Source: a virus (Duplodnaviria; Heunggongvirae; Uroviricota; Caudoviricetes). Taken from it: a stretch of 33,331 nucleotides of DNA. Location: the IMG/VR virus record IMGVR_UViG_2703718780_000026; one strand, given 5' to 3'. Each line of letters starts with the position of its first letter. The stretch's first letter is position 1. Below the pieces are notes generated by a model. The model worked only from the letters and a program-made list of their open reading frames with translations. It ran no database searches and had not been told where the DNA came from. Below are positions 3,254 to 23,914 of this stretch, in pieces. A program made the position numbers and the translations under genes.

Positions 3254-3525
3254 GTATTCGTATCGAAATTGGCGAACGTTATGTCGTTACCAGTGACAGC
3301 TTTCAGTTTATTCTCCACGAGAAAAAGAGAGCGGAAAGCGGTAAAAACGCCGGTCAGGAATGGCTGGCGGTGGTTGGTTATTACCCGAAATTAAGCCAGC
3401 TCGTTTCCGGCCTGATGCATCACGATATTCTGACCGGAAGCGCAAAGTCTTTTGCTGATTTAAACGCGCAGGTTGAGCAACTCAGCAAGCGTTGTTCAGA
3501 GGCTTTTGGCTCATATGGCCGTTAA
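3250..3525 (+). CDS. Hypothetical early protein
   Basis: 91-aa ORF immediately upstream of A and overlapping its start. Confidence 0.55.
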   Translation: MSIRIEIGERYVVTSDSFQFILHEKKRAESGKNAGQEWLAVVGYYPKLSQLVSGLMHHDILTGSAKSFADLNAQVEQLSKRCSEAFGSYGR

Positions 3526-5800
3526 AGCCTCCGGGCGTTTTGTCCCTCCGTCAGCATTTGCCGCAGGCACCGGTAAGGCGTTTACCGGTGCTTATGCATG
3601 GAACGCGCCACGCGAGGCTGTCGGGCGCGAAAGACCCCTTACACGTGACGAGATGCGTCAGGTGCAAGGTGTTTTATCCACGATTAACCGCCTGCCTTAC
3701 TTTTTGCGCTCGCTGTTTACTTCACGCTATGACTACATCCGGCGCAATAAAAGCCCGGTGCACGGGTTTTATTTCCTTACATCCACTTTTCAGCGTCGTT
3801 TATGGCCGCGCATTGAGCGTGTGAATCAGCGCCATGAAATGAACACCGACGCGTCGTTGCTGTTTCTGGCAGAGCGTGACCATTATGCGCGCCTGCCTGG
3901 AATGAATGACAAGGAGCTGAAAAAGTTTGCCGCCCGTATCTCATCGCAGCTTTTCATGATGTATGAGGAACTCTGCGATGCATGGGTTGATGCTCATGGC
4001 GAAAAAGAATCGCTGTTTACGGATGAGGCGCAGACTCACCTGTATGGTCATGTTGCTGGCGCTGCACGTGCTTTCAATATTTCCCCGCTCTACTGGAAAA
4101 AATACCGTAAAGGGCAGATGACCACGAGGCAGGCATATTCTGCCATTGCCCGCCTGTTTAACGATGAGTGGTGGACTCATCAGCTTAAAGGCCAGCGTAT
4201 GCGCTGGCATGAGGCGTTACTGATTGCTGTCGGGGAGGTCAATAAAGACCGTTCTCCTTATGCCAGTAAACATGCCATTCGTGATGTGCGTGCGCGCCGC
4301 CAGGCAAATCTGGAATTTCTTAAATCGTGTGACCTTGAAAACAAGGAAACCGGCGAGCGCATCGACCTTATCAGTAAGGTGATGGGCAGTATTTCTAATC
4401 CAGAAATTCGCCGGATGGAGCTGATGAACACCATCGCCGGTATTGAGCGTTACGCCGCCGCAGAGGGTGATGTGGGGATGTTTATCACGCTGACCGCGCC
4501 GTCAAAGTATCACCCGACACGTCAGGTCAGAAAAGGCGAAAGTAAAACCGTCCAGCTAAATCACGGCTGGAACGATGAGGCATTTAATCCAAAGGATGCG
4601 CAGCGTTATCTCTGCCGTATCTGGAGCCTGATGCGCACGGCATTCAAGGATAATGATTTACAGGCCTACGGTTTGCGTGTTGTTGAACCACACCACGACG
4701 GAACGCCGCACTGGCATATGATGCTTTTTTGTAATCCACGCCAGCGTAACCAGATTATTGAAATCATGCGTCGCTATGCGCTCAAAGAGGATGGCGACGA
4801 AAGAGGAGCCGCGCGAAACCGTTTTCAGGCAAAACACCTTAACCGGGGCGGTGCTGCGGGATATATCGCGAAATACATCTCAAAAAACATCGACGGCTAT
4901 GCACTGGATGGTCAGCTCGATAATGATACCGGTAGGCTGCTGAAAGACACTGCAGCGGCTGTTACCGCATGGGCGTCTACGTGGCGCATTCCGCAATTTA
5001 AAACGGTTGGCCTGCCGACAATGGGGGCTTACCGTGAGCTACGCAAATTGCCTCGCGGCGTCAGCATTGCTGATGAGTTTGACGAACGCGTCGAGGCTGC
5101 ACGCGCCGCCGCAGACAGTGGTGATTTTGCGCTGTATATCAGCGCGCAGGGCGGGGCAAATGTCCCGCGCGATTGTCAGACTGTCAGGGTCGCCCGTAGC
5201 CCGTCGGATGACGTTAACGAGTACGAGGAAGAAGTCGAGAGAGTGGTCGGCATTTACGCGCCGCATCTCGGCGCGCGTCATATTCATATCACCAGAACGA
5301 CGGACTGGCGCATTGTGCCGAAAGTTCCGGTCGTTGAGCCTTTGACTTTAAAAAGCGGCATCGCCGCGCCTCGGAGTCCTGTCAATAACTGTGGAAAGCT
5401 CACCGGTAGTGATGCTTCGTTACCGGCTCCCACACCTTCTGAGCACGCTGCAGCAGTGCTAAATCTGGTTGATGACGGTGTTATCGAATGGAATGACCCA
5501 GAGGTCGTGAGGGCGCTCAGGGGAGCATTAAAACACGGTCTGAAAACACCAAATCGTCAGCAAAGAAACGGAAGTCCGTTAAAAACACATGAAATTGAAC
5601 CGTCGGCCAGACTGACCCGGTCGGAACGAATGCAAATCACCCGTATCCGCGTTGACCTTGCTCAGAACGGTATCAGGCCTCAGCGATGGGAGCTTGAGGC
5701 GCTGGCGCGTGGCGCGACCGTAAATTATGACGGGAAAAAATTCACGTATCCGGTCGCTGATGAGTGGCCGGGATTCTCAACAGTAATGGAGTGGACATAA
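3515..5800 (+). CDS. A: Replication initiation endonuclease A (rolling-circle, HUH-type)
   Basis: ATG at 3515 gives 761 aa, the same as P2 gpA. HUH-like motif PHWHMMLF and paired active-site tyrosines YIAKYISK, as in the phiX174 A / P2 A family. Confidence 0.9.
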   Translation: MAVKASGRFVPPSAFAAGTGKAFTGAYAWNAPREAVGRERPLTRDEMRQVQGVLSTINRLPYFLRSLFTSRYDYIRRNKSPVHGFYFLTSTFQRRLWPRIERVNQRHEMNTDASLLFLAERDHYARLPGMNDKELKKFAARISSQLFMMYEELCDAWVDAHGEKESLFTDEAQTHLYGHVAGAARAFNISPLYWKKYRKGQMTTRQAYSAIARLFNDEWWTHQLKGQRMRWHEALLIAVGEVNKDRSPYASKHAIRDVRARRQANLEFLKSCDLENKETGERIDLISKVMGSISNPEIRRMELMNTIAGIERYAAAEGDVGMFITLTAPSKYHPTRQVRKGESKTVQLNHGWNDEAFNPKDAQRYLCRIWSLMRTAFKDNDLQAYGLRVVEPHHDGTPHWHMMLFCNPRQRNQIIEIMRRYALKEDGDERGAARNRFQAKHLNRGGAAGYIAKYISKNIDGYALDGQLDNDTGRLLKDTAAAVTAWASTWRIPQFKTVGLPTMGAYRELRKLPRGVSIADEFDERVEAARAAADSGDFALYISAQGGANVPRDCQTVRVARSPSDDVNEYEEEVERVVGIYAPHLGARHIHITRTTDWRIVPKVPVVEPLTLKSGIAAPRSPVNNCGKLTGSDASLPAPTPSEHAAAVLNLVDDGVIEWNDPEVVRALRGALKHGLKTPNRQQRNGSPLKTHEIEPSARLTRSERMQITRIRVDLAQNGIRPQRWELEALARGATVNYDGKKFTYPVADEWPGFSTVMEWT

Positions 5801-6252
5801 TGGCAAAAATTCACGAGGTAAAGCTGCACGCAAAATATTTCGACCTTGTACTGGAAGGAAAGAAACGCGCAGAGTTTCGGAAAAATGACCGTAATTATGA
5901 GCGCGGGGACACGTTGATTTTGCATGAATGGGTGCAGGGTGTGTTTACGGGGCGCAAGGTTGAAGCCCGGATAACAGATGTTACTGACCTGTCAGACTGG
6001 CTGGAAGATTATGTCTTGCTAAGTATTGAGCTGCTTAATACGGGCGCATATAAGATTGTGAACTGGAAAGAACTTAGTGAACGTGGTTTGGTATTCAGAA
6101 TTAATCATGAAATTATGCATCAGCTTGGCCTTGCTGTTATGTATGAACCAGAGACAGGGATGTCTGGTGGTGCAATGGTTGCCACGGATGGGATATGGAA
6201 TTATTCAGATGAACAGATGGAGCATGCAAAGCAAAACGGGTGGCTTGGATAA
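5800..6252 (+). CDS. ASCH/DUF3850-like protein (tentative)
   Basis: ATG at 5800 overlaps the A stop (TAATG). N-terminus MAKIHEVKLHAKYFDLVLEGKKRAEFRKNDRNYERGDTLILHEW resembles the DUF3850/ASCH consensus as I remember it; needs an HMM check. Confidence 0.5.
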   Translation: MAKIHEVKLHAKYFDLVLEGKKRAEFRKNDRNYERGDTLILHEWVQGVFTGRKVEARITDVTDLSDWLEDYVLLSIELLNTGAYKIVNWKELSERGLVFRINHEIMHQLGLAVMYEPETGMSGGAMVATDGIWNYSDEQMEHAKQNGWLG

Positions 6253-6458: not shown

Positions 6459-6763
6459 AGAACGCCGCCAGTCGTGAAACTTGTTTTCAGGGCTGGCGGG
6501 GTTGAACAACGAGCGAAGCGAGGCGTTAGTTATGTAAAGTTAAAGTCATTTAAAACAGTACATTAGTGGAAAGGATGTTGAGAGTATTCGGTTACGAGAG
6601 GGAATGGATGTATTTACAGAAATTGTTGGATTAATTGTAGTAAAGCTAGGCTAGGATAAGGCCTTAGGGCTGGATGTGGGGAGCATTCTTGTTGTTTGCT
6701 AAAACGCTCGAGATTTTTGAAGGATACAGTTATACTCTGTCGGAGGATGAATCGGAGACTAAA

Positions 6764-7801
6764 ATGGCGGTAAAAGTTGTTGATCTTTTTTGTGGTGCTG
6801 GCGGGCTTACTCATGGCTTAAAGCAAGCCGGATTAGATGTAGTCGCTGGTATTGATATAGAGAGTGCATGCCGGGTTGCTTATGAAATTAATAACAGTGC
6901 GCTTTTTATTGAAAAAGATATTTCTCTGGTGACCAAAGACGAGCTTAACGATCTTTTTGAAGGTGCGCAGGTAAGGGTGTTGGCTGGTTGTGCGCCGTGC
7001 CAACCTTTTTCAAGGTATACGCAAGGGCGCGATAAGAAAAATGATAAAAAGTGGCCTCTTCTTTATGAATTTGAACGTTTAATTCGAGGGGTTAATCCAG
7101 AGATCGTTACAATGGAAAATGTACCTGATGTAACGAAGCATTCTGTTTATAGTGACTTCTATAATAGTTTAGAGGCATTGGGTTATCATGTCTGGGCCGG
7201 AAAGGTTGAATGTGTAGATTATGGTGTTCCGCAAAATAGAGTTAGGCATGTATTATTGGCATCTAAATTTGCGCCGCTTTCATTTGTAAAACCAAAAGTA
7301 GAAAAGGCGGTGACGGTAAAAGAATGCATTGGCGGACTTCCTCCATTAAAGGCTGGTCAAACGGATCCTGTTGATCCTTTACATAAAGCAAGTAAATTAA
7401 GTGATATAAATCTAAAACGTATTGCTTGCTCTAAACCAGGAGGGACATGGCGAGACTGGCCAGTAGAGTTGATTGCATCATGCCACATAAAGAAAAGTGG
7501 GCAAGGTTATGCTAGTGTATATGGACGTATGGATTGGGATAAACCAAGTCCTACAATTACTACGCTATGTTATGGTTTTGGAAATGGCAGATTTGGTCAT
7601 CCCGAGCAAAATCGTGCAATTTCTCTGAGAGAGGCTGCATTGTTACAAACGTTTCCAAAGGATTACGTTTTTACTGCACCCAATGAGAAAGTATCTATAA
7701 AGAATGTTGGTAGGATGATTGGTAATGCTGTACCGGTAAAACTAGGTGAGGTTATAGGTGAGTCAATTATAACTCACCTAAAAGAGCACAATATAGTTTA
7801 A
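6764..7801 (+). CDS. DNA (cytosine-5) methyltransferase
   Basis: ATG at 6764 with GGAG RBS 6 nt upstream. C5-MTase motifs read in order: I DLFCGAGG, IV PCQPFS, VI ENV, VIII QNRVR, X GNAV. 345 aa. Confidence 0.9.
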   Translation: MAVKVVDLFCGAGGLTHGLKQAGLDVVAGIDIESACRVAYEINNSALFIEKDISLVTKDELNDLFEGAQVRVLAGCAPCQPFSRYTQGRDKKNDKKWPLLYEFERLIRGVNPEIVTMENVPDVTKHSVYSDFYNSLEALGYHVWAGKVECVDYGVPQNRVRHVLLASKFAPLSFVKPKVEKAVTVKECIGGLPPLKAGQTDPVDPLHKASKLSDINLKRIACSKPGGTWRDWPVELIASCHIKKSGQGYASVYGRMDWDKPSPTITTLCYGFGNGRFGHPEQNRAISLREAALLQTFPKDYVFTAPNEKVSIKNVGRMIGNAVPVKLGEVIGESIITHLKEHNIV

Positions 7802-8529
7802 GCCTGTAGTCTTGATGATCGTATGTATAAGCGATCATCAAGGTATTTTTGTATGTTTTCTAGTATTTCTTCTAGGTAATGGAAAACTTCATTTTTAAGA
7901 AGTTCAAGGTTGTCAATAGACGTTTCTTGACCCTTGTTTAAAAAGGATTCTGAACCATGCGCCAATGCATTTCTTGCTTTTTTTATGTTTACTAAATTTC
8001 CACCATTATGAGTTTTTGAACGATCTGTTTGAGAGGAAAAACCATAGATACTAGCAACATCCCTAATTTTCTGTGCGTCAACATTTCCAGAAAATAGGGG
8101 GTTTTTATCTGCTTGAACTTGTTTTTTGTGTTCCTCTAGCCATTTTTTTAGAACTAGTTTTGCTATATCACCTTGTGAAAAATCCATGTCACTCACCATA
8201 TGATGGTCTAATTTTTTTAAGGCAAGCTTTGTTAAGCTTTCGCAAATTTTATCGACACAAAGATCATCACACGAATTAAGTTCATTATGTATATCTTCAA
8301 TAGCATTAGATATAGTGGCTTCAATTAAGTTATATAATATAATAAACGCATTGGCTTTTAGGATATGCGTCATTTCGATATCAATTTCGCGGTGTTTACA
8401 TTCGCCTGCTATGCGATCTTTGTACGAGAATGTTGGTCTCTCATCAATAATGAATTTAACAAAATCAAAATATTTTTCTATATCTTCTTTTCTTTCAGAA
8501 AATAAAATTTTGCTGTTCATGATGACCAC
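7798..8529 (-). CDS. Hypothetical protein with C-terminal HEPN-like R-N-x3-H motif
   Basis: 243 aa from a GTG at 8529 (RBS GAGGAG 10 nt upstream), or 240 aa from the ATG at 8520. KKARNALAHG matches the HEPN Rx4-6H signature. Its stop codon overlaps the MTase stop (7798-7801 shared, convergent). Confidence 0.6.
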   Translation of the reverse strand: MVIMNSKILFSERKEDIEKYFDFVKFIIDERPTFSYKDRIAGECKHREIDIEMTHILKANAFIILYNLIEATISNAIEDIHNELNSCDDLCVDKICESLTKLALKKLDHHMVSDMDFSQGDIAKLVLKKWLEEHKKQVQADKNPLFSGNVDAQKIRDVASIYGFSSQTDRSKTHNGGNLVNIKKARNALAHGSESFLNKGQETSIDNLELLKNEVFHYLEEILENIQKYLDDRLYIRSSRLQA

Positions 8530-8535
8530 GGATAG

Positions 8536-9660
8536 TTACTCCTCACTATCATCTAGAACAGTATCTTCGGTCTGCACACCTAAAAGTTTGTCTCTTACAT
8601 ATTCAATACGTGCTTTTACTTTAGGTTTTGAATTTGATGCATCAGATCTTGTATGTTTAATAAACTCTTCTGAGTTTAACCATTCCTCTACCGGTGTTGG
8701 TATTATGTTAGAGTCAGTTTTTAAGGCCAAAGTGGAACCGACAGCTAACGCTTCAAAGCGAATTCTTGGTACAGTGTTTGCCGTTGCATTCTTTCTGAAA
8801 CCATAGGGGAAATATGTTTTGACAAATTCACACATATCTTGAAATTGTGCAGTTAGTTTTTCTTCTTGCTCAGGACTAAATGACTCATTGCGTTGGTCAA
8901 GATATTGGGTTAAGAAAGTATCAACACTTTTTTCAAAGTTAAGATAGTTATCACAATAGGCAAAATATCTAAGAACCAATTCTGGATATTCTCCACGACT
9001 GATCCTAGCATCGTTTAGAGGGCATATTTCCCTAAACAATGGAAACTCTGATAGTCTATTAACAACATCAAGAAAAGGCCCATCATTACTGCCCTGTCGT
9101 TGCTCCATTGTCGTGAGTTTTATTCCACCTGTATTCAATCGATCGAAAATCTCCCTTCTTGCTTCTTCATCACATAATTCAGTGAGTTCAATCATTCGAA
9201 TAGTTTTTCTATCGAATCTAAGCTTACGTGCAGGTGTGAAGTCAGAGTATTTGAATCCGTTGGCTGAAGTTAGCTTTTTTAATCCAGTAAGGGTAAATTT
9301 ATCATTTAGGAAATGATAAAGTGTTCTAATCCTCTGGCTACCATCAACGATTTCCAATCGCCCATCGTCATTTCCGATATCGGCGACAAATACATATGGG
9401 ATAGGAATATTTAGCAAAAGAGATTCAATGAATCTTGATTTTTGAACATTGCTCCAAACAAATTCCCTTTGATAATCAGGTATGTATAGTTCTGCTTGGT
9501 CGGTTTCTAATCCTTTCTGAAATTTGTCAACAATGACACTTACAGGAAACTCTCTGATTTGGTGATCCGTTATTTTTTGCATGGATTTGATCTGGTTATC
9601 CAGGTCAACTTTATCTTCTTCTGTGATCACTTGTTCAGGTTGTCTTGGGACTCTTGCCAT
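8536..9660 (-). CDS. DUF262 (ParB/Srx-like) domain protein, standalone (no DUF1524/HNH domain)
   Basis: ATG at 9660 with AGGAG RBS; 374 aa. Motifs IPDYQREFVW and DGSQRIRTL (the DGQQR-type signature) plus C-terminal FDRLNTGGIKLT. First gene of a two-gene operon, 6-nt gap to the downstream gene. Confidence 0.75.
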   Translation of the reverse strand: MARVPRQPEQVITEEDKVDLDNQIKSMQKITDHQIREFPVSVIVDKFQKGLETDQAELYIPDYQREFVWSNVQKSRFIESLLLNIPIPYVFVADIGNDDGRLEIVDGSQRIRTLYHFLNDKFTLTGLKKLTSANGFKYSDFTPARKLRFDRKTIRMIELTELCDEEARREIFDRLNTGGIKLTTMEQRQGSNDGPFLDVVNRLSEFPLFREICPLNDARISRGEYPELVLRYFAYCDNYLNFEKSVDTFLTQYLDQRNESFSPEQEEKLTAQFQDMCEFVKTYFPYGFRKNATANTVPRIRFEALAVGSTLALKTDSNIIPTPVEEWLNSEEFIKHTRSDASNSKPKVKARIEYVRDKLLGVQTEDTVLDDSEE

Positions 9661-9681
9661 TTGTTTTCTCCTTATGCTTAT

Positions 9682-9706
9682 TTGCAATAAGTTGCATTTG
9701 TTTGCA
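9682..9706 (-). promoter_or_regulatory. Three TTGCA motifs at 10-bp phasing in the leader of the DUF262 operon (candidate operator)
   Basis: TTGCA at 9682-9686, 9692-9696 and 9702-9706 on the + strand (TGCAA x3 on the coding strand), between the predicted promoter and the start codon. Confidence 0.3.
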
Positions 9707-9723
9707 TGCGTAGTTTTATACTG

Positions 9724-9752
9724 ATTTAATCCCACAAGTCCTTTACATGCAA
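9724..9752 (-). promoter_or_regulatory. Candidate sigma70 promoter for the DUF262/HEPN-like operon (TTGCAT, 17 nt, TTAAAT on the minus strand)
   Basis: Reverse complement of 9747-9752 is TTGCAT; reverse complement of 9724-9729 is TTAAAT; spacer 17 nt. About 60 nt upstream of the ATG at 9660. Confidence 0.35.
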
Positions 9753-9802
9753 GGGTTAGAGGCTTAAATGCACCTGCATTAAAACCGCCCCACGAAGCGG
9801 GC

Positions 9803-9821
9803 GGGCGAGGCGGGGAAAGCA
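9803..9821. other. cos cohesive-end site (P2/P4-type 19-mer GGCGAGGCGGGGAAAGCAC)
   Basis: The 19-mer matches the P2/P4 cohesive-end sequence as I recall it, and the following sequence (CTGCGCGCTG.CGGTGGTGCTGATT...TTTTTTCAGCGTCT) resembles the P4/P2 left end. Located between the cargo and Q, as expected for an integrated P2. Confidence 0.7.
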
Positions 9822-9964
9822 CTGCGCGCTGGCGGTGGTGCTGATTTTATTTTTTCAGCGTCTGAGCGCGTCGTGATAGCGTTTAGATTGTGCGCCGGGG
9901 CGTTGGTTTGTCTGCGGGCTGTTTTGCGCGGTGGTGAGCGTGTGAGGGCGTGATGACGGGGTGT

Positions 9965-9991: not shown

Positions 9992-11026
9992 TCAGCCGTT
10001 GTCAGTGTCCAGTGAGTAGTTTTTAAAGCGGATGACCTCCTGACCGAGCCAGCCGTTTATCTCGCGGATCCTGTCCTGTAACGGGATAAGCTCATTGCGG
10101 ACAAAGACCTTTGCCACTTTCTCAATATCACCCAGCGACCCGACGTTCTCCGGCTTGCCACCCATCAACTGAAAGGGGATGCGGTGTGCGTCCAGCAGGT
10201 CAGCGGCGCTGGCTTTTTTGATATTAAAAAAATCGTCCTTCGTCGCCACTTCACTGAGCGGGATAATTTTAATGCCGTCGGCTTTCCCCTGCGGGGCATA
10301 GAGAAACAGATTTTTAAAGTTATTGCGGCCTTTTGACTTAACCATGTTTTCGCGGAGCATTTCGATATCGTTGCGATCCTGCACGGCATCGGTGACGTAC
10401 ATGATGTATCCGGCATGTGCGCCATTTTCGTAATACTTGCGGCGGAACAGTGTGGCCGACTCATTCAGCCAGGCAGAGTTAAGGGCGCTGAGATATTCCG
10501 GCAGGCCGTACAGCTCCTGATTAATATCCGGCTCCAGCAGGTGAAACACGGAACCGGGCGCGAAGGCTGTCGGCTCGTTGAAGGACGGCACCCACCAGTA
10601 AACATCCTCTTCCACACCACGGCGGGTATATTTTGCCGGTGAGGTTTCCAGTCTGATGACCTTACCGGTGGTGCTGTAACGCTTTTCCAGAAACGCATTA
10701 CCGAACACCAGAAAATCCAGCACAAAGCGGCTGAAATCCTGCTGGGAAAGCCACGGATGCGGGATAAATGTCGAGGCCAGAATATTACGTTTGACGTAAA
10801 TCGGGGAGCTGTGATGCACGGCAGCACGCAGGCTTTTTGCCAGACCGGTAAAGCTGACCGGTGGCTCATACCATCTGCCGTTACTGATGCACTCGACGTA
10901 ATCCAGAATGTCACGGCGGTCGAGTACCGGCACCGGCTCACCAAAGGTGAATGCCTCCATTTTCGGGGCGCTGGCGGTCATTTTTTTTGCCGCAGGTTGC
11001 GGTGTTTTCCCTTTTTTCTTGCTCAT
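9992..11026 (-). CDS. Q: Portal protein (P2 gpQ-like)
   Basis: 344 aa, the same as P2 Q. Adjacent to cos and transcribed toward it; start overlaps the P stop. Confidence 0.88.
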   Translation of the reverse strand: MSKKKGKTPQPAAKKMTASAPKMEAFTFGEPVPVLDRRDILDYVECISNGRWYEPPVSFTGLAKSLRAAVHHSSPIYVKRNILASTFIPHPWLSQQDFSRFVLDFLVFGNAFLEKRYSTTGKVIRLETSPAKYTRRGVEEDVYWWVPSFNEPTAFAPGSVFHLLEPDINQELYGLPEYLSALNSAWLNESATLFRRKYYENGAHAGYIMYVTDAVQDRNDIEMLRENMVKSKGRNNFKNLFLYAPQGKADGIKIIPLSEVATKDDFFNIKKASAADLLDAHRIPFQLMGGKPENVGSLGDIEKVAKVFVRNELIPLQDRIREINGWLGQEVIRFKNYSLDTDNG

Positions 11027-12798
11027 CAGTAAAACTCCAGAATGGTGGATGTCAGCGGGGTGCTGATACCGGCGGTGAGTGGCTCATTTAACAGGGCGTG
11101 CATGGTCGCCCAGGCGAGGTCGGCGTGGCTGGCTTCCTCGCTGCGGCTGGCCTCATAGGTGGCGCTACGTCCGCTGCTGGTCATGGTCTTGCGGATAGCC
11201 ATAAACGAGCTGGTGATGTCGGTGGCGCTGACGTCATATTCCAGACAGCCACGACGGATAACGTCTTTTGCCTTGAGCACCATTGCGGTTTTCATTTCCG
11301 GCGTGTAGCGGATATCGCGCGCGGCGGGATAGAACGAGCGCACGAGCTGGAACACGCCGACACCGAGGCCGGTGGCATCAATACCGATGTATTCGACGTT
11401 GTATTTTTCGGTGAGTTTGCGGATGGATTCAGCCTGAGTGGCAAAGTCCATGCCTTTCCACTGGTGACGCTCAAGTATTCTGAATTTGCCACCGGCCACC
11501 ACCGGCGGTGCCAGCACCACGCATCCGGCGCTGTCGCCACGGTGTGACGGGTCGTAACCAATCCATACCGGGCGGGAGCCGAACGGATTGGCGGCAAACG
11601 GTGCATAGTCTTCCCATTCTTCCAGCGTGTCCACCATGCAGCGTTGCAGCTCCTCGAACGGGAACACCGATGCCTTGTCGTCAACAAATTCACACATGAA
11701 CAGGTTTTTAAAATCGTCGGCGCTGTTTTCGCGTTTGAGCTGCTCAATGTCGAACAGCGTGCAGCCGCCTTTCAGGGCGTCCTCAATGGTGACAATCTGC
11801 CGCCACTGGCCGTCCGCACAGAGAAGCCCACCGGCAAGGGCGTTATGACTGACGTCGATTTCCACGCGTTCGGCGGCGCTGGCGCGTCCCCGGTTAAACA
11901 GTTCACCCGACCAGAACGGGTAGGCGTCGTGCGCCAGCGTGGACGGGGTGGAGAAATAGGTCGAGCGCAGGTGACTCTGTGAGGCCATACCTGATGCCAC
12001 CTTACGCAGTACCTGAAAATTCGGGATCCAGAAAATCTCGTCGACGTACAGGTCGCCGTTATGGCTCTGTGCGGTGTTGGAGTTGGTGCCGAGAAAAATC
12101 AGTTTTGCACCGTTATTGCCCAGGACAATCGGGTCACCGGTCAGGTCAACGTCAACCAGACGGGCAAAGGCGATGATGTATTCGCGGAACACATACGCCT
12201 GCGTTTTACTGGCCGACAGAAAAATCTGGTTATGACCGGTTTTCAGGGCACGCAGCAGCGCCTCGCGGGAAAAATAAAACGTCGCGCCAATCTGGCGGGA
12301 TTTCAGGATATCGCGGATGCGGTGCTCAAGCCCGGCGCGATACCAGTGCAACTGATAGTCGAAAGACTGCTCAAAGAAAATCTGCTCCAGCTTTTCGATA
12401 GCCTCGTCACTGAAAAAATTCTTTTTCGGTTTGCGCCGCCCGCCTTTGTTGCGGTTAGCGACGTTCGGATTAAGGTCTGCCTCGTTGCCGGTCTGGCTGT
12501 AGCGATTTACCCGTGCCAGTCGTTCAATCTGGCGTCCCAGCAGGTCAATTTCCTTGAAGTCACCACCGGTTTTCTGCGGTTTGATGATGAGCTGGGTCAG
12601 CCGCGCTTCCAGGCTCATTTCGACACGGCTGATGGGGGCAACGCTGTCCCAGCCGTCGCGCTGTTTCCAGCTCTGCACCGTCGGGCGTTTCATCTGCAAC
12701 ATGGCGGCAATCTGCGGCACGGAAAATCCCTGCCAGTACAGCAGCGCCGCCTGACGACGCGGGTCGTGTAAAAGAGTGGTGTCTGTGGTGATGGTCAT
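11026..12798 (-). CDS. P: Terminase large (ATPase) subunit (P2 gpP-like)
   Basis: ATG at 12798 (MTITTDTTLL...) with GAGGT RBS; 590 aa, the same as P2 P. The tracker's start at 12828 is a TTG. Confidence 0.88.
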   Translation of the reverse strand: MTITTDTTLLHDPRRQAALLYWQGFSVPQIAAMLQMKRPTVQSWKQRDGWDSVAPISRVEMSLEARLTQLIIKPQKTGGDFKEIDLLGRQIERLARVNRYSQTGNEADLNPNVANRNKGGRRKPKKNFFSDEAIEKLEQIFFEQSFDYQLHWYRAGLEHRIRDILKSRQIGATFYFSREALLRALKTGHNQIFLSASKTQAYVFREYIIAFARLVDVDLTGDPIVLGNNGAKLIFLGTNSNTAQSHNGDLYVDEIFWIPNFQVLRKVASGMASQSHLRSTYFSTPSTLAHDAYPFWSGELFNRGRASAAERVEIDVSHNALAGGLLCADGQWRQIVTIEDALKGGCTLFDIEQLKRENSADDFKNLFMCEFVDDKASVFPFEELQRCMVDTLEEWEDYAPFAANPFGSRPVWIGYDPSHRGDSAGCVVLAPPVVAGGKFRILERHQWKGMDFATQAESIRKLTEKYNVEYIGIDATGLGVGVFQLVRSFYPAARDIRYTPEMKTAMVLKAKDVIRRGCLEYDVSATDITSSFMAIRKTMTSSGRSATYEASRSEEASHADLAWATMHALLNEPLTAGISTPLTSTILEFY

Positions 12799-12971
12799 GA
12801 ATACCTCGCCGTGATGAATACACGGCAAGGCTACTGAGTCGCGCCCCGCGATTCGCTAAGGTGCTGTTGTGTCAGTGATAAGCCATCCGGGACTGATGGC
12901 GGAGGATGCGCATCGTCGGGAAACTGATGCCGACATGTGACTCCTCTAATCACTATTCAGGACTCCTGACA

Positions 12972-14961: not shown

Positions 14962-15705
14962 ATGACGAGTCCCGCACAGCGCCACATGATGCGGGTCTCG
15001 GCAGCGATGACCGCGCAGCGGGAAGCCGCCCCGCTGCGACATGCAACTGTCTATGAGCAGATGCTGGTTAAGCTCGCCGCAGACCAGCGCACACTGAAAG
15101 CGATTTATTCAAAAGAGCTGAAGGCCGCGAAAAAACGCGAACTGCTGCCGTTCTGGTTGCCGTGGGTGAACGGCGTGCTGGAGCAGGGCAAAGGCGCACA
15201 GGATGACATTCTGATGACGGTCATGCTGTGGCGTCTGGATACCGGCGATATTGCCGGTGCGCTGGAGATTGCCCGTTATGCCCTGAAGTACGGTCTGACC
15301 ATGCCGGGTAAACACCGCCGCACCCCGCCGTACATGTTCACCGAGGAGGTCGCGCTTGCGGCCATGCGTGCCCACGCTGCCGGTGAGTCTGTGGATACCC
15401 GCCTGCTGACGGAGACCCTTGAACTGACTGCCGCTGCTGACATGCCTGATGAAGTGCGCGCAAAGCTGCACAAAATCACCGGTCTGTTTCTGCGTGACGG
15501 TGGTGATGCCGCCGGTGCGCTGGCGCACCTGCAACGTGCGACACAGCTCGACTGTCAGGCAGGCGTCAAAAAAGAGATTGAACGACTGGAGCGGGAGCTG
15601 AAACCGAAGCCGGAGCCGCAGCCCAAAGCGGCCACCCGTACCCCGCGTAAGACCCGGAGCGTGACACCGGCAAAACGTGGACGCCCGAAAAAGAAAGCCA
15701 GTTAA
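14962..15705 (+). CDS. M: Terminase small (endonuclease) subunit (P2 gpM-like)
   Basis: 247 aa, the same as P2 M; basic C-terminal tail. Confidence 0.85.
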   Translation: MTSPAQRHMMRVSAAMTAQREAAPLRHATVYEQMLVKLAADQRTLKAIYSKELKAAKKRELLPFWLPWVNGVLEQGKGAQDDILMTVMLWRLDTGDIAGALEIARYALKYGLTMPGKHRRTPPYMFTEEVALAAMRAHAAGESVDTRLLTETLELTAAADMPDEVRAKLHKITGLFLRDGGDAAGALAHLQRATQLDCQAGVKKEIERLERELKPKPEPQPKAATRTPRKTRSVTPAKRGRPKKKAS

Positions 15706-21664: not shown

Positions 21665-23914
21665 ATGAGCACAAAATTCAGAACCGTTATCACCACTGCC
21701 GGTGCAGCAAAGCTGGCAGCGGCAACCGCACCGGGAGGGCGGAAGGTCAACATTACCACGATGGCCGTCGGGGATGGCGGTGGTAAATTGCCTGTCCCGG
21801 ATGCCGGACAGACCGGGCTTATCCACGAAGTCTGGCGACATGCGCTGAACAAAATCAGCCAGGACAAACGAAACAGTAATTATATTATCGCAGAGCTGGT
21901 TATTCCGCCGGAGGTGGGCGGTTTCTGGATGCGTGAACTTGGCCTGTACGATGATGCGGGAACGCTAATTGCCGTGGCGAACATGGCCGAAAGTTATAAG
22001 CCAGCCCTTGCCGAAGGCTCAGGGCGTTCGCAGACCTGCCGCATGGTCATCATCGTCAGCAGTGTGGCCTCAGTGGATCTGACCATTGACACCACAACGG
22101 TGATGGCGACGCAGGATTACGTTGATGACAAAATTGCAGAGCATGAACAGTCACGACGTCACCCGGACGCTTCTTTGACCGCAAAAGGTTTTACTCAGTT
22201 AAGCAGTGCGACCAACAGCACGTCTGAAACACTCGCCGCAACACCAAAAGCGGTAAAAGCAGCATATGACCTTGCTAACGGGAAATACACTGCACAGGAC
22301 GCCACCACAGCGCGAAAAGGCCTTGTCCAGCTCAGTAGTGCCACCAACAGCACGTCTGAAACGCTCGCCGCAACACCAAAAGCGGTAAAAGCAGCATATG
22401 ACCTTGCTAACGGGAAATACACTGCACAGGATGCCACCACCGCGCGAAAAGGCCTTGTCCAGCTCAGTAGCGCCACCAACAGCGATTCTGAAACGCTTGC
22501 GGCAACGCCAAAGGCGGTAAAGGCAGCGTATGACCTTGCTAACGGGAAATACACTGCACAGGATGCCACCACGGCGCGGAAAGGCCTTGTCCAGCTCAGT
22601 AGCGCCACCAACAGTGATTCTGAAACGCTGGCCGCAACACCAAAAGCGGTGAAGTCTGCCTATGACAATGCTGAAAAACGTCTTCAGAAAGATCAGAACG
22701 GTGCGGATATTCCTGATAAAGGACGCTTCCTGAGTAACATTAATGTTTACAGCAAAGGTGAAGTGGATAAGAAAAAGGGAATGCGAAAGTATTCGTTTGC
22801 AGCCCCTGCAAATGTCGTTGCCGGGAAGTGGTATCCCGTTATCTTTCGCCGTGCTGCCAGCCTTTCAGGAGAAATGGCATCCCGCGTCGTTATTTCCACT
22901 GGTTGTTATAACAGCGATTATGTAATGAATAACTGTGAGTTTAATGGCATGGTTATGCCCGGAGGCTGGACTGATCGTGGTTCTTATGCGGCAGGTTATT
23001 TCTGGACGTATCAGACTAATGAGCGTTCAATCCATTCCATTGTTACAAGCCTGAAAGATGATGATGTATGTAGTGTTTTTTATGTTGAAGCCAGAGCTTT
23101 TCCCGTACAAATTCTTGCAGAGGAAGGGCTAACGGTTATTGTTCCGACAGAGGATTATGTCGTCGGTCAAACGACATATAAGTGGGGGGCAACTAATCCC
23201 GCTACAGAAAGCACGAACGCACAGGCTATTCTGGATTTTAAAAATGGACGTGGTTATTACTGTTCACATCCATTTATTTCCAGCCTTTCAGGAAATGCTG
23301 CAACAGCAACGAAGTTAGCGAACGCAAGAAATATTAATGGTGTCAGATTTGATGGCTCTGCCGATATAAATATTAATACACTGGTATCCAGAAACCGTGT
23401 TACTGCATTAGGTGGGAGCGTAAAGGGGACACCAGGTATTCAGATGTATGAGGCATACAACAATGGCTACCCAACAGCCTATGGTAATGTGCTTCATCTC
23501 ACTGGTGTAACCGCAGTAGGAGAGGGTGAGTTACTTATTGGCTGGAGTGGAACCAGCGGTGCTCATGCTCCGGCATATATTCGCTCCCGACGAGATACCA
23601 CAGATGCTAACTGGTCTGGATGGGCGCAACTATATACAACTGCTCATAAACCCTCAGCGGGAGATGTTGGTGCATACACCAAAGCTGAGTCAGATTCACG
23701 TTATGTGAGAGACATGCGGCTGGGCGGTGCATCTACATATAAACCAGCAAATAATGGTACTACATGGACGCATCAGGCTCCGTCAGGTTGCGTATATACC
23801 GGCATTATTGTTCAGGATACCGGCTCAAACTCTGCCGATAACATTGGTGGCGTATATTACAGACCGGTGCAGAAATACATTAACGGGACATGGTATAACG
23901 TGGCGCAGGTATAA
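21665..23914 (+). CDS. H: Tail fibre protein H, with expanded internal repeats and a divergent C-terminal domain
   Basis: 749 aa (P2 H is 669 aa, from memory). N-terminal region is baseplate-proximal and conserved-looking; central 44-aa repeats; the distal part is AT-richer by eye. Confidence 0.85.
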   Translation: MSTKFRTVITTAGAAKLAAATAPGGRKVNITTMAVGDGGGKLPVPDAGQTGLIHEVWRHALNKISQDKRNSNYIIAELVIPPEVGGFWMRELGLYDDAGTLIAVANMAESYKPALAEGSGRSQTCRMVIIVSSVASVDLTIDTTTVMATQDYVDDKIAEHEQSRRHPDASLTAKGFTQLSSATNSTSETLAATPKAVKAAYDLANGKYTAQDATTARKGLVQLSSATNSTSETLAATPKAVKAAYDLANGKYTAQDATTARKGLVQLSSATNSDSETLAATPKAVKAAYDLANGKYTAQDATTARKGLVQLSSATNSDSETLAATPKAVKSAYDNAEKRLQKDQNGADIPDKGRFLSNINVYSKGEVDKKKGMRKYSFAAPANVVAGKWYPVIFRRAASLSGEMASRVVISTGCYNSDYVMNNCEFNGMVMPGGWTDRGSYAAGYFWTYQTNERSIHSIVTSLKDDDVCSVFYVEARAFPVQILAEEGLTVIVPTEDYVVGQTTYKWGATNPATESTNAQAILDFKNGRGYYCSHPFISSLSGNAATATKLANARNINGVRFDGSADININTLVSRNRVTALGGSVKGTPGIQMYEAYNNGYPTAYGNVLHLTGVTAVGEGELLIGWSGTSGAHAPAYIRSRRDTTDANWSGWAQLYTTAHKPSAGDVGAYTKAESDSRYVRDMRLGGASTYKPANNGTTWTHQAPSGCVYTGIIVQDTGSNSADNIGGVYYRPVQKYINGTWYNVAQV
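22196..22665 (+). repeat. In-frame 132-bp tandem repeat (about 3.5 copies) within H, encoding a 44-aa phage tail-fibre repeat
   Basis: ACCAACAG anchor recurs at 22211, 22343, 22475 and 22607 (period 132). Protein unit SSATNS(T/D)SETLAATPKAVKAAYDLANGKYTAQDATTARKGLVQL. Copies 1-2 carry ACGTCT and copies 3-4 GATTCT (an AABB pattern). Confidence 0.85.

Follow-up and report, generated by a model that had tools for sequence, protein, structure and literature searches.

In bacteriophage lambda, the cosB element is composed of the sites R3-I1-R2-R1, which are bound by the small terminase gpNu1 together with IHF. Among the proteins of a helper phage, terminase is the one with a known action at cos, and in P2 the right end of the genome is the last DNA that enters the head. 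For P2 and its satellite P4, cos is commonly quoted as a "55-bp core" (Ziermann & Calendar 1990, cited in PMC5694545, PMC9594776 and PMC9122126), and P4 is packaged by the P2 terminase (PMC9122126). In addition, a cos-proximal hotspot of defence genes has been described for P2-like phages (Rousset et al. 2022, PMC9122126).

We analysed one stretch of viral DNA of 33,331 nt, which is called the window below and to which all coordinates refer. The window is a P2-like (Peduovirus) prophage that encodes an integrase (1-1011), an HTH repressor (1051-1344), Cox (1497-1769), the replication protein gpA (3473-5800), and the portal protein gpQ (9992-11026, minus strand). Table 1 lists the features around cos. 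The 19 nt of the cohesive-end core are annotated as cosR in the P2 record (NC_001895), and distances are given as offsets that are counted from position 9822, i.e. offset = 9822 - coordinate. The 55-bp core, as far as it is described in the papers that cite the 1990 work, is intact in the window at offsets 0-54, where it covers the cohesive-end core, the hairpin, and the proximal ATGCA box.

The stretch 9661-9780 separates cos from the start codon of a DUF262 gene, which forms an operon with a HEPN gene. This DUF262-HEPN cassette occupies the known defence hotspot next to cos in P2-like phages. Among the PADLOC models, NsnA (5e-56) and PD-T4-2_A (4e-34) match the DUF262 protein, whose MAR start is kept in relatives; none was found to match the HEPN partner. 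The exact leader of the window is present in only four of 5,426 complete E. coli genomes. E. coli VG12A2 (NZ_CP128592) shows 100% identity to the window at 9600-9830. Further along the hotspot, a C5 cytosine methyltransferase gene (6674-7801, plus strand) is convergent with the DUF262-HEPN pair, and a hairpin with a 14-bp stem lies between them at 7809-7844. At the inner edge of the hotspot, directly 3′ of gpA, a protein of 162 aa with DUF3850/ASCH and DUF7415 domains is encoded (5764-6252, plus strand), which did not match any defence model.

Table 1. Features of the P2-type cos region, of the adjacent cargo operon, and of the terminase genes in the window
Feature	Position	Strand	Offset	Remarks
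cos cohesive-end core, 19 nt, GGCGAGGCGGGGAAAGCAC	9804..9822			Linear P2-like phage records start exactly at window position 9804
G+C hairpin followed by T-run, conserved	9785..9804	minus	18-37	Terminator-like; inside the conserved cos block
Proximal box pair, palindrome AATGCAggTGCATT	9767..9780		43 (start of ATGCA)	
Spacer between proximal and distal boxes, 60 bp	9708..9766	minus		Fixed length, free sequence; 0.3 bits/position
Putative -35, TTGCAT	9747..9752	minus		3/6 versus TTGACA; CTTGC invariant in five diverged DUF262 cassettes
Putative -10, TTAAAT	9724..9729	minus		4/6 versus TATAAT; predicted start near 9717
Distal cos box 1, ATGCAA	9702..9707	minus	115	
Distal cos box 2, ATGCAA	9692..9697	minus	125	
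Distal cos box 3, TTGCAA	9682..9687	minus	135	One base off ATGCA
Shine-Dalgarno motif, AAGGAG	9668..9673	minus	149-154	
DUF262/GmrSD_N gene	8536..9660	minus		First gene of cargo operon; Pfam GmrSD_N 7e-29
HEPN (MAE_28990-like) gene	7798..8529	minus		Second gene of cargo operon; Pfam HEPN_MAE_28990 1e-19
gpM-type small terminase gene	14962..15705	plus		Candidate reader of the boxes, binding presumed; Pfam Phage_term_smal 6e-48
gpP-type large terminase gene	11026..12828	minus		Alternative candidate reader; Pfam Terminase_5 / HTH_23 (residues 22-79), Terminase_6N, 6C

Upstream of the DUF262 gene, the initial annotation had described three TGCAA motifs at a spacing of exactly 10 bp, followed by a ribosome binding site. 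Both observations were confirmed on the minus strand, with the motifs at 9706-9702, 9696-9692, and 9686-9682, and with AAGGAG 7 nt ahead of the ATG at 9660. The triplet far exceeds chance. Its expectation is 0.01 per window, and it was matched in one of 100 shuffles of the whole window. It was absent from all 20,000 dinucleotide shuffles of 9661-9780, and any 5-mer that occurs three times at 10-bp spacing was found in 10 of the 20,000. The three motifs lie 60 bp outside the 55-bp core. The accessible P2/P4 cos literature, i.e. that other than the original 1990 deletion analysis, speaks only of the 55-bp core and does not mention them.

BLAST similarity to other P2-like phages begins at about 9768, within the proximal palindrome. 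BLAST is blind to the distal boxes, because their flanks are unrelated and only 5-6 bp are conserved, and it was the alignment by distance from cos alone that revealed them. For this alignment, loci with the exact cos core were drawn from a viral contig collection, which yielded 106 distinct right arms, the window included, from both P2-like phages and P4-like satellites. An ATGCA box begins at offset 43 in 101 of the 106 right arms (95%), and ATGCA is found at offset 115±1 in 87% and at offset 125±1 in 79% of them, compared with a background rate of 0.0019 per position. A third box, either ATGCA or TGCAT, is present at offsets 129-142 in 67% of the arms, and 134-138 is a common position. The exact pair ATGCA-N5-ATGCA occurs in 77 of the 106 arms, and its first box is located at offset 114-116 in 74 of these 77. 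For 75 arms with downstream sequences that are less than 60% identical to one another, the fractions are 85% for box 1 and 76% for box 2. An exact ATGCA at box 1 is missing in 14 of 75 portal-adjacent arms, many of which, as judged by eye, have one-base variants (ATGCG, ATTCA). The three motifs of the window are found at offsets 115, 125, and 135, and therefore belong to a cos-linked element.

The information content of the 106 arms follows the same division. It is 1.7 bits/position at offsets 0-54, i.e. in the cos block that includes the hairpin, and 0.3 bits/position at offsets 55-112. At each distal box it is about 1.0 bits/position, a value that is blurred by the ±1 shifts, and beyond offset 146 it is 0.15. 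The spacers of the 106 arms represent 55 families at <60% identity, and the spacer of the window is at most 43% identical to that of any other arm. Many right arms of both the phage and the satellite type in IMG/VR contain a G+C-rich inverted repeat in the spacer at offsets of about 66-92, e.g. GCGCCAGctCTGGCG, or CCGCGCCgggaatGGCGCGG in P4. The spacer of the window is devoid of such a repeat and has a promoter-like sequence in its place.

The boxes are independent of the cargo genes. We compared the cos-proximal 280 bp of P2 (old/tin), fiAA91-ss (cdt), R18C (Fic), L-413C, and P24A7b. A cATGCAA-N4-ATGCA pair is found at a constant distance from cos in all of these phages, embedded in unrelated sequence. 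The orientation of the adjacent gene is equally free. The adjacent gene is directed toward cos in the reference P4, where it is psu, and in phage 186, where it is orf97 with its terminator t95b; both genomes keep the boxes at offsets 43, 115, 125, and 135-138. The P2 record places the starts of the old-tin transcript at offsets 167 and 169, with all of the boxes upstream, and the -35 element of the old-tin promoter (TTGAAT-17-TAAAAA) overlaps box 3. The orientation in P4 and 186 and the start positions in P2 show that the boxes are not a leader or promoter element in general. The old-tin promoter resembles the arrangement proposed for the window in that an outward-facing, cos-adjacent cargo promoter serves a lysogenic-conversion/defence operon (NC_001895). 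It differs in its position, because the putative promoter of the window lies upstream of the distal boxes, in the spacer. As an additional observation, boxes 2 and 3 often form an inverted pair at offsets 122-150 in P4, 186, and several IMG/VR arms. In P4-type arms the inverted boxes are followed by a T-run (CCATGCAccttatcgATGCATGGcttttttc), which results in an outward-facing, terminator-like hairpin that is made of the boxes.

Loci that do not have a portal gene within 1.6 kb of cos were regarded as satellite-like (n = 24). Box 1 is present in all 24 of them and the pair in 22. In many loci, including some that look like satellites, the left arm becomes variable 7 nt past the core, after TGCGCGC, in agreement with the placement of the P4 hotspot beside cos by Rousset et al. 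(PMC9122126). Because the left arm of the satellites varies from this point, the recognition determinants shared by P2 and P4 must be located in the core and the right arm, the latter being the arm with the boxes. The hotspot of the loci with a variable left arm thus abuts cos on the side opposite to the P2 hotspot.

The distances from cos are also conserved over a considerable phylogenetic depth. The same box offsets were found in Eganvirus (186, PSP3, EtG, BIS20), a Klebsiella phage, Erwinia ENT90, a Ralstonia Aresaunavirus, and Burkholderia KS5 (Kisquinquevirus), and they persist despite differing cohesive-end sequences. Altogether, the fixed offsets hold in seven Peduoviridae genera and in P4. 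The sequence of the boxes is lineage-specific. P88, Shae_phiSM, and phiT5282H (Xuanwuvirus/Novemvirus) contain GTGCA at offsets 43, 115, 125, and 135, and GTGCA boxes are also visible in the raw sequence of phage 503458. In phiCTX, Dobby, and D14A, CTGCA or CTGCG is found at offsets 44, 115, and 125. The spacers have diverged within the GTGCA group as well as within the CTGCR group. In the ATGCA, GTGCA, and CTGCR classes, each of which is represented by at least three genomes, the proximal and the distal boxes change together. This concerted change argues for a single sequence-specific reader that recognises both kinds of boxes and evolves together with the phage lineage. The record of Pseudomonas phage phiCTX (AB008550) shows a further similarity, i.e. 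the depositor-marked repeats R3-R6 span the cos region; the record gives no function for them, and they are not equated here with the CTGCR boxes. After the portal genes of Fels-2 and vB_EcoM-813R9, neither a cos core nor boxes were found, and their cos must be located elsewhere or be strongly different; in both phages a convergent gene begins within about 90 bp of the portal gene. In Vibrio PV94, no recognisable element was seen.

With a probability of about two in three, we interpret the triplet as the distal portion of a bipartite module for cos recognition in the P2 family, which is probably read by terminase. According to the sequence comparisons, the module would consist of the 19-nt core and the hairpin, a proximal ATGCA box at +43, which is usually an inverted pair, a length-fixed spacer of 60 bp, and two to three tandem ATGCA boxes at +115, +125, and about +135. 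The distance between offsets 43 and 115 is 72 bp, i.e. about seven helical turns. Terminase would recognise both sets of boxes jointly, from one face of the helix, and the spacer would probably be bent or looped. The candidate reader is the small subunit gpM, the large subunit gpP by way of its N-terminal HTH, or both. The complex of terminase and boxes would position the enzyme for cos cleavage and packaging, comparable to the R sites of lambda cosB. As a consequence of such a module, the variable genes of the hotspot could only start past about +140. An indirect hint of a role in packaging is that lengthening the flanks of the "55-bp" P2/P4 cos in a cosmid raised its transduction >1000-fold (PMC9594776).

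The proposed module shares several properties with lambda cosB, i.e. short boxes that are repeated to one side of the nicking site, a range of about 50-170 bp, the anchoring of terminase, which we infer for the P2-type boxes, and a bendable bipartite layout. There are also differences. The R sites of lambda are 16 bp long, whereas the P2-type boxes have a TGCA core of 5-6 bp. The P2-type boxes are also located on the right arm of the P2 map, and their spacer is not known to contain an IHF site. With the right end of P2 packaged last, the analogy to cosB, which is on the first-packaged side, would be imperfect. A role of the boxes in cutting or termination is equally possible as one in initiation.

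The initial annotation had also proposed a near-consensus sigma70 promoter for the DUF262 operon. Its location is plausible, and the hexamers are conserved in DUF262 relatives, but the strength that had been ascribed to it was not borne out. The hexamers TTGCAT and TTAAAT are separated by 17 nt (9746-9730), which is within 17±1 bp, but they score only 7/12, TTAAAT is devoid of the A at position 2 (T at -11), and a consensus promoter scan did not call the pair. A score of 7/12 equals the median of the best scores in the equivalent 60-bp spacer of the 106 right arms. The window's own match to a promoter is weak, and on its sequence alone it is indistinguishable from background. A rival pairing in the window, AGGACT-16-TATAAA, has a higher score of 8/12. 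TATAAA at 9720-9715 was considered as the -10 element, with 5/6 matching positions, but was rejected, as it has no usable -35 element (best pairing 8/12) and is not conserved in relatives.

The relatives of the cassette provide additional information about the spacer. DUF262 proteins with 69-79% identity are encoded in Peduovirus P24B2, Kluyvera, Buttiauxella, and IMG/VR contigs, in all cases beside a P2-type cos. In five diverged DUF262 lineages the upstream regions are collinear with the window, with invariant islands between diverged flanks. The islands are the palindrome AATGCAnnTGCATT, CTTGC (offsets 69-73), TAnAT (94-98), two ATGCA boxes at 10-bp spacing, and the GC of the third box. None of them was found upstream of DUF262 relatives outside of P2 phages (Burkholderiales, Chitinophagales). 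The hexamers homologous to those of the window are TTGCCA-16-TATAAA with a score of 10/12 (Kluyvera, locus L002) and TTGCCA-16-TATAGA with a score of 9/12 (P24B2 type). The ATG of the DUF262 gene is located at offset 162, and because the gene begins only 22 bp after the last box, its promoter must be upstream of the boxes. A cargo promoter at the spacer location is thus plausible from the conserved sequence, and the odds that exactly TTGCAT and TTAAAT form an active promoter appear to be roughly even. Because the DUF262-HEPN operon abuts the boxes, its promoter would be accommodated inside the free spacer, with the -35 element at +70, the -10 element at +93, and the start near +105. The leader of the DUF262 mRNA would simply read through the distal boxes. 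A leaderless start at an AUG within a box is at odds with the relatives and was rejected.

The DUF262 relatives at first suggested a cassette-specific operator, which was rejected in view of the presence of the same boxes at unrelated cargos. In a wider form, the initial annotation had suggested that the triplet could be the binding site of a host or phage regulator that controls the defence module. The boxes indeed lie between the predicted start (~9717) and the Shine-Dalgarno motif, a classic roadblock position, and they are kept in diverged DUF262 cassettes. However, identical boxes at the same distance from cos stand beside unrelated cargos, beside genes that point to cos, e.g. in 186, in P4 satellites, in phages of several bacterial orders, and, in P2, upstream of the promoter; their position is constant with respect to cos but not with respect to promoters or genes. 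An operator as the primary function is thus largely refuted, and we regard it as very unlikely. The boxes are very probably binding sites for a phage protein, as the comparative data suggest, but as part of cos, and any effect on the expression of the operon would be secondary. Control by one specific host regulator, CytR, would place the operon under nucleoside/cAMP control. CytR motifs are TGCAA-N2-3-TTGCA, TTGCAA, and the octamer GTTGCATT (reverse complement AATGCAAC), and they include direct repeats with same-face spacing (PMC3454398). The window has three half-sites of the TGCAA type on one helix face, 10 bp apart, and its box 2 matches the octamer in 8/8 positions, much like the TGCAA / AATGCAAC half-sites of E. 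coli CytR operators. But CytR depends on a CRP site that is at most about 5 nt away (PMC3454398), and no CRP-like site (TGTGA-N6-TCACA, up to three mismatches) was found in 9638-9871. The published natural direct repeats have 1-bp spacers between the octamers, compared with 2 bp in the window. In addition, the boxes are tied to cos and are kept in phages of hosts without CytR, including Ralstonia and Burkholderia phages, whereas CytR has been described only in some gamma-proteobacteria (PMC3454398), making a CytR operator highly improbable. Still less probable is a role at the RNA level, i.e. a structured or protein-bound 5′ leader or small upstream ORFs that tune the translation of DUF262. 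With the proposed promoter the boxes would be transcribed, and the AUGs in boxes 1 and 2 (AUGCAA) open frames of 9 and 20 codons. However, the leader folds no better than shuffled sequences (z = -1.3), it has no Rfam match at threshold, the upstream AUGs are not preceded by a Shine-Dalgarno motif, and the boxes are conserved in P4 and 186, where they are not transcribed in the leader direction.

Readings that place the function of the boxes in the DNA itself have to be weighed against the same comparisons. In P2-type phages the boxes mark the boundary between conserved and variable DNA, as would be expected of a crossover or recombination site for the exchange of hotspot cassettes. Such a site is highly improbable, however, because P4-like satellites vary across cos, 7 nt from the core, and have the boxes on the conserved psu side, and because variation also extends to the 60-bp spacer between the boxes. 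The boxes could also belong to a cos-linked element that has a reader other than terminase or that acts at a step other than cos recognition, e.g. the protection or anchoring of the first-injected end, the joining of the ends after injection, or the bending of cos by a nucleoid protein. The comparative data reveal the linkage to cos and a specific reader that co-evolves with the lineage, which is compatible with more than one reader or step, and the phiCTX record annotates an IHF site as well as repeats near cos. The lineage-specific changes of the boxes (ATGCA, GTGCA, CTGCR), in contrast, disfavour a universal host protein, and the retention of the helper's boxes by P4 satellites, which do not have packaging genes of their own, fits a helper-encoded reader. 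We therefore consider this reading unlikely, albeit one to be taken seriously, and prefer the recognition of the boxes by terminase. If terminase is the reader, the boxes may do double duty. In the lineage of the window they would be situated inside the leader of the defence operon, and terminase that assembles on cos late in the lytic cycle of the phage would block or cut off the transcription of DUF262-HEPN; in the other direction, the complex at cos could be cleared or remodelled by transcription that starts in the spacer. On a broader view, a spacer with a fixed length and a free sequence may serve cargo promoters in general as a landing pad. We regard these possibilities as quite unlikely.

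Phased repeats in front of a defence operon resemble an operator, and in the present case they would be part of the architecture of a packaging site. The functional cos of P2 and P4 would have to be redrawn as a bipartite module of about 140 bp with lineage-specific boxes, in contrast to the 55-bp core that is usually cited. A site of this size would account for the point at which the cos-proximal defence hotspot starts, and cargo promoters may have to live inside cos. The three classes of boxes, i.e. ATGCA, GTGCA, and CTGCR, would represent a testable recognition code for the packaging specificity of helpers and satellites, and the extended site could be of practical use for the efficient design of P2/P4 cosmids and transducing particles. 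If the double function were true, it would provide a built-in switch that silences the defence cargo exactly when the prophage packages itself.

The scan for CRP patterns also revealed a 16-mer, TATGACCTTGCTAACG, which is present three times at exact intervals of 132 bp in the window (22265-22544). The sequence suggests that these copies belong to a tandem repeat of 44 codons in a late gene, probably a tail-fibre gene.
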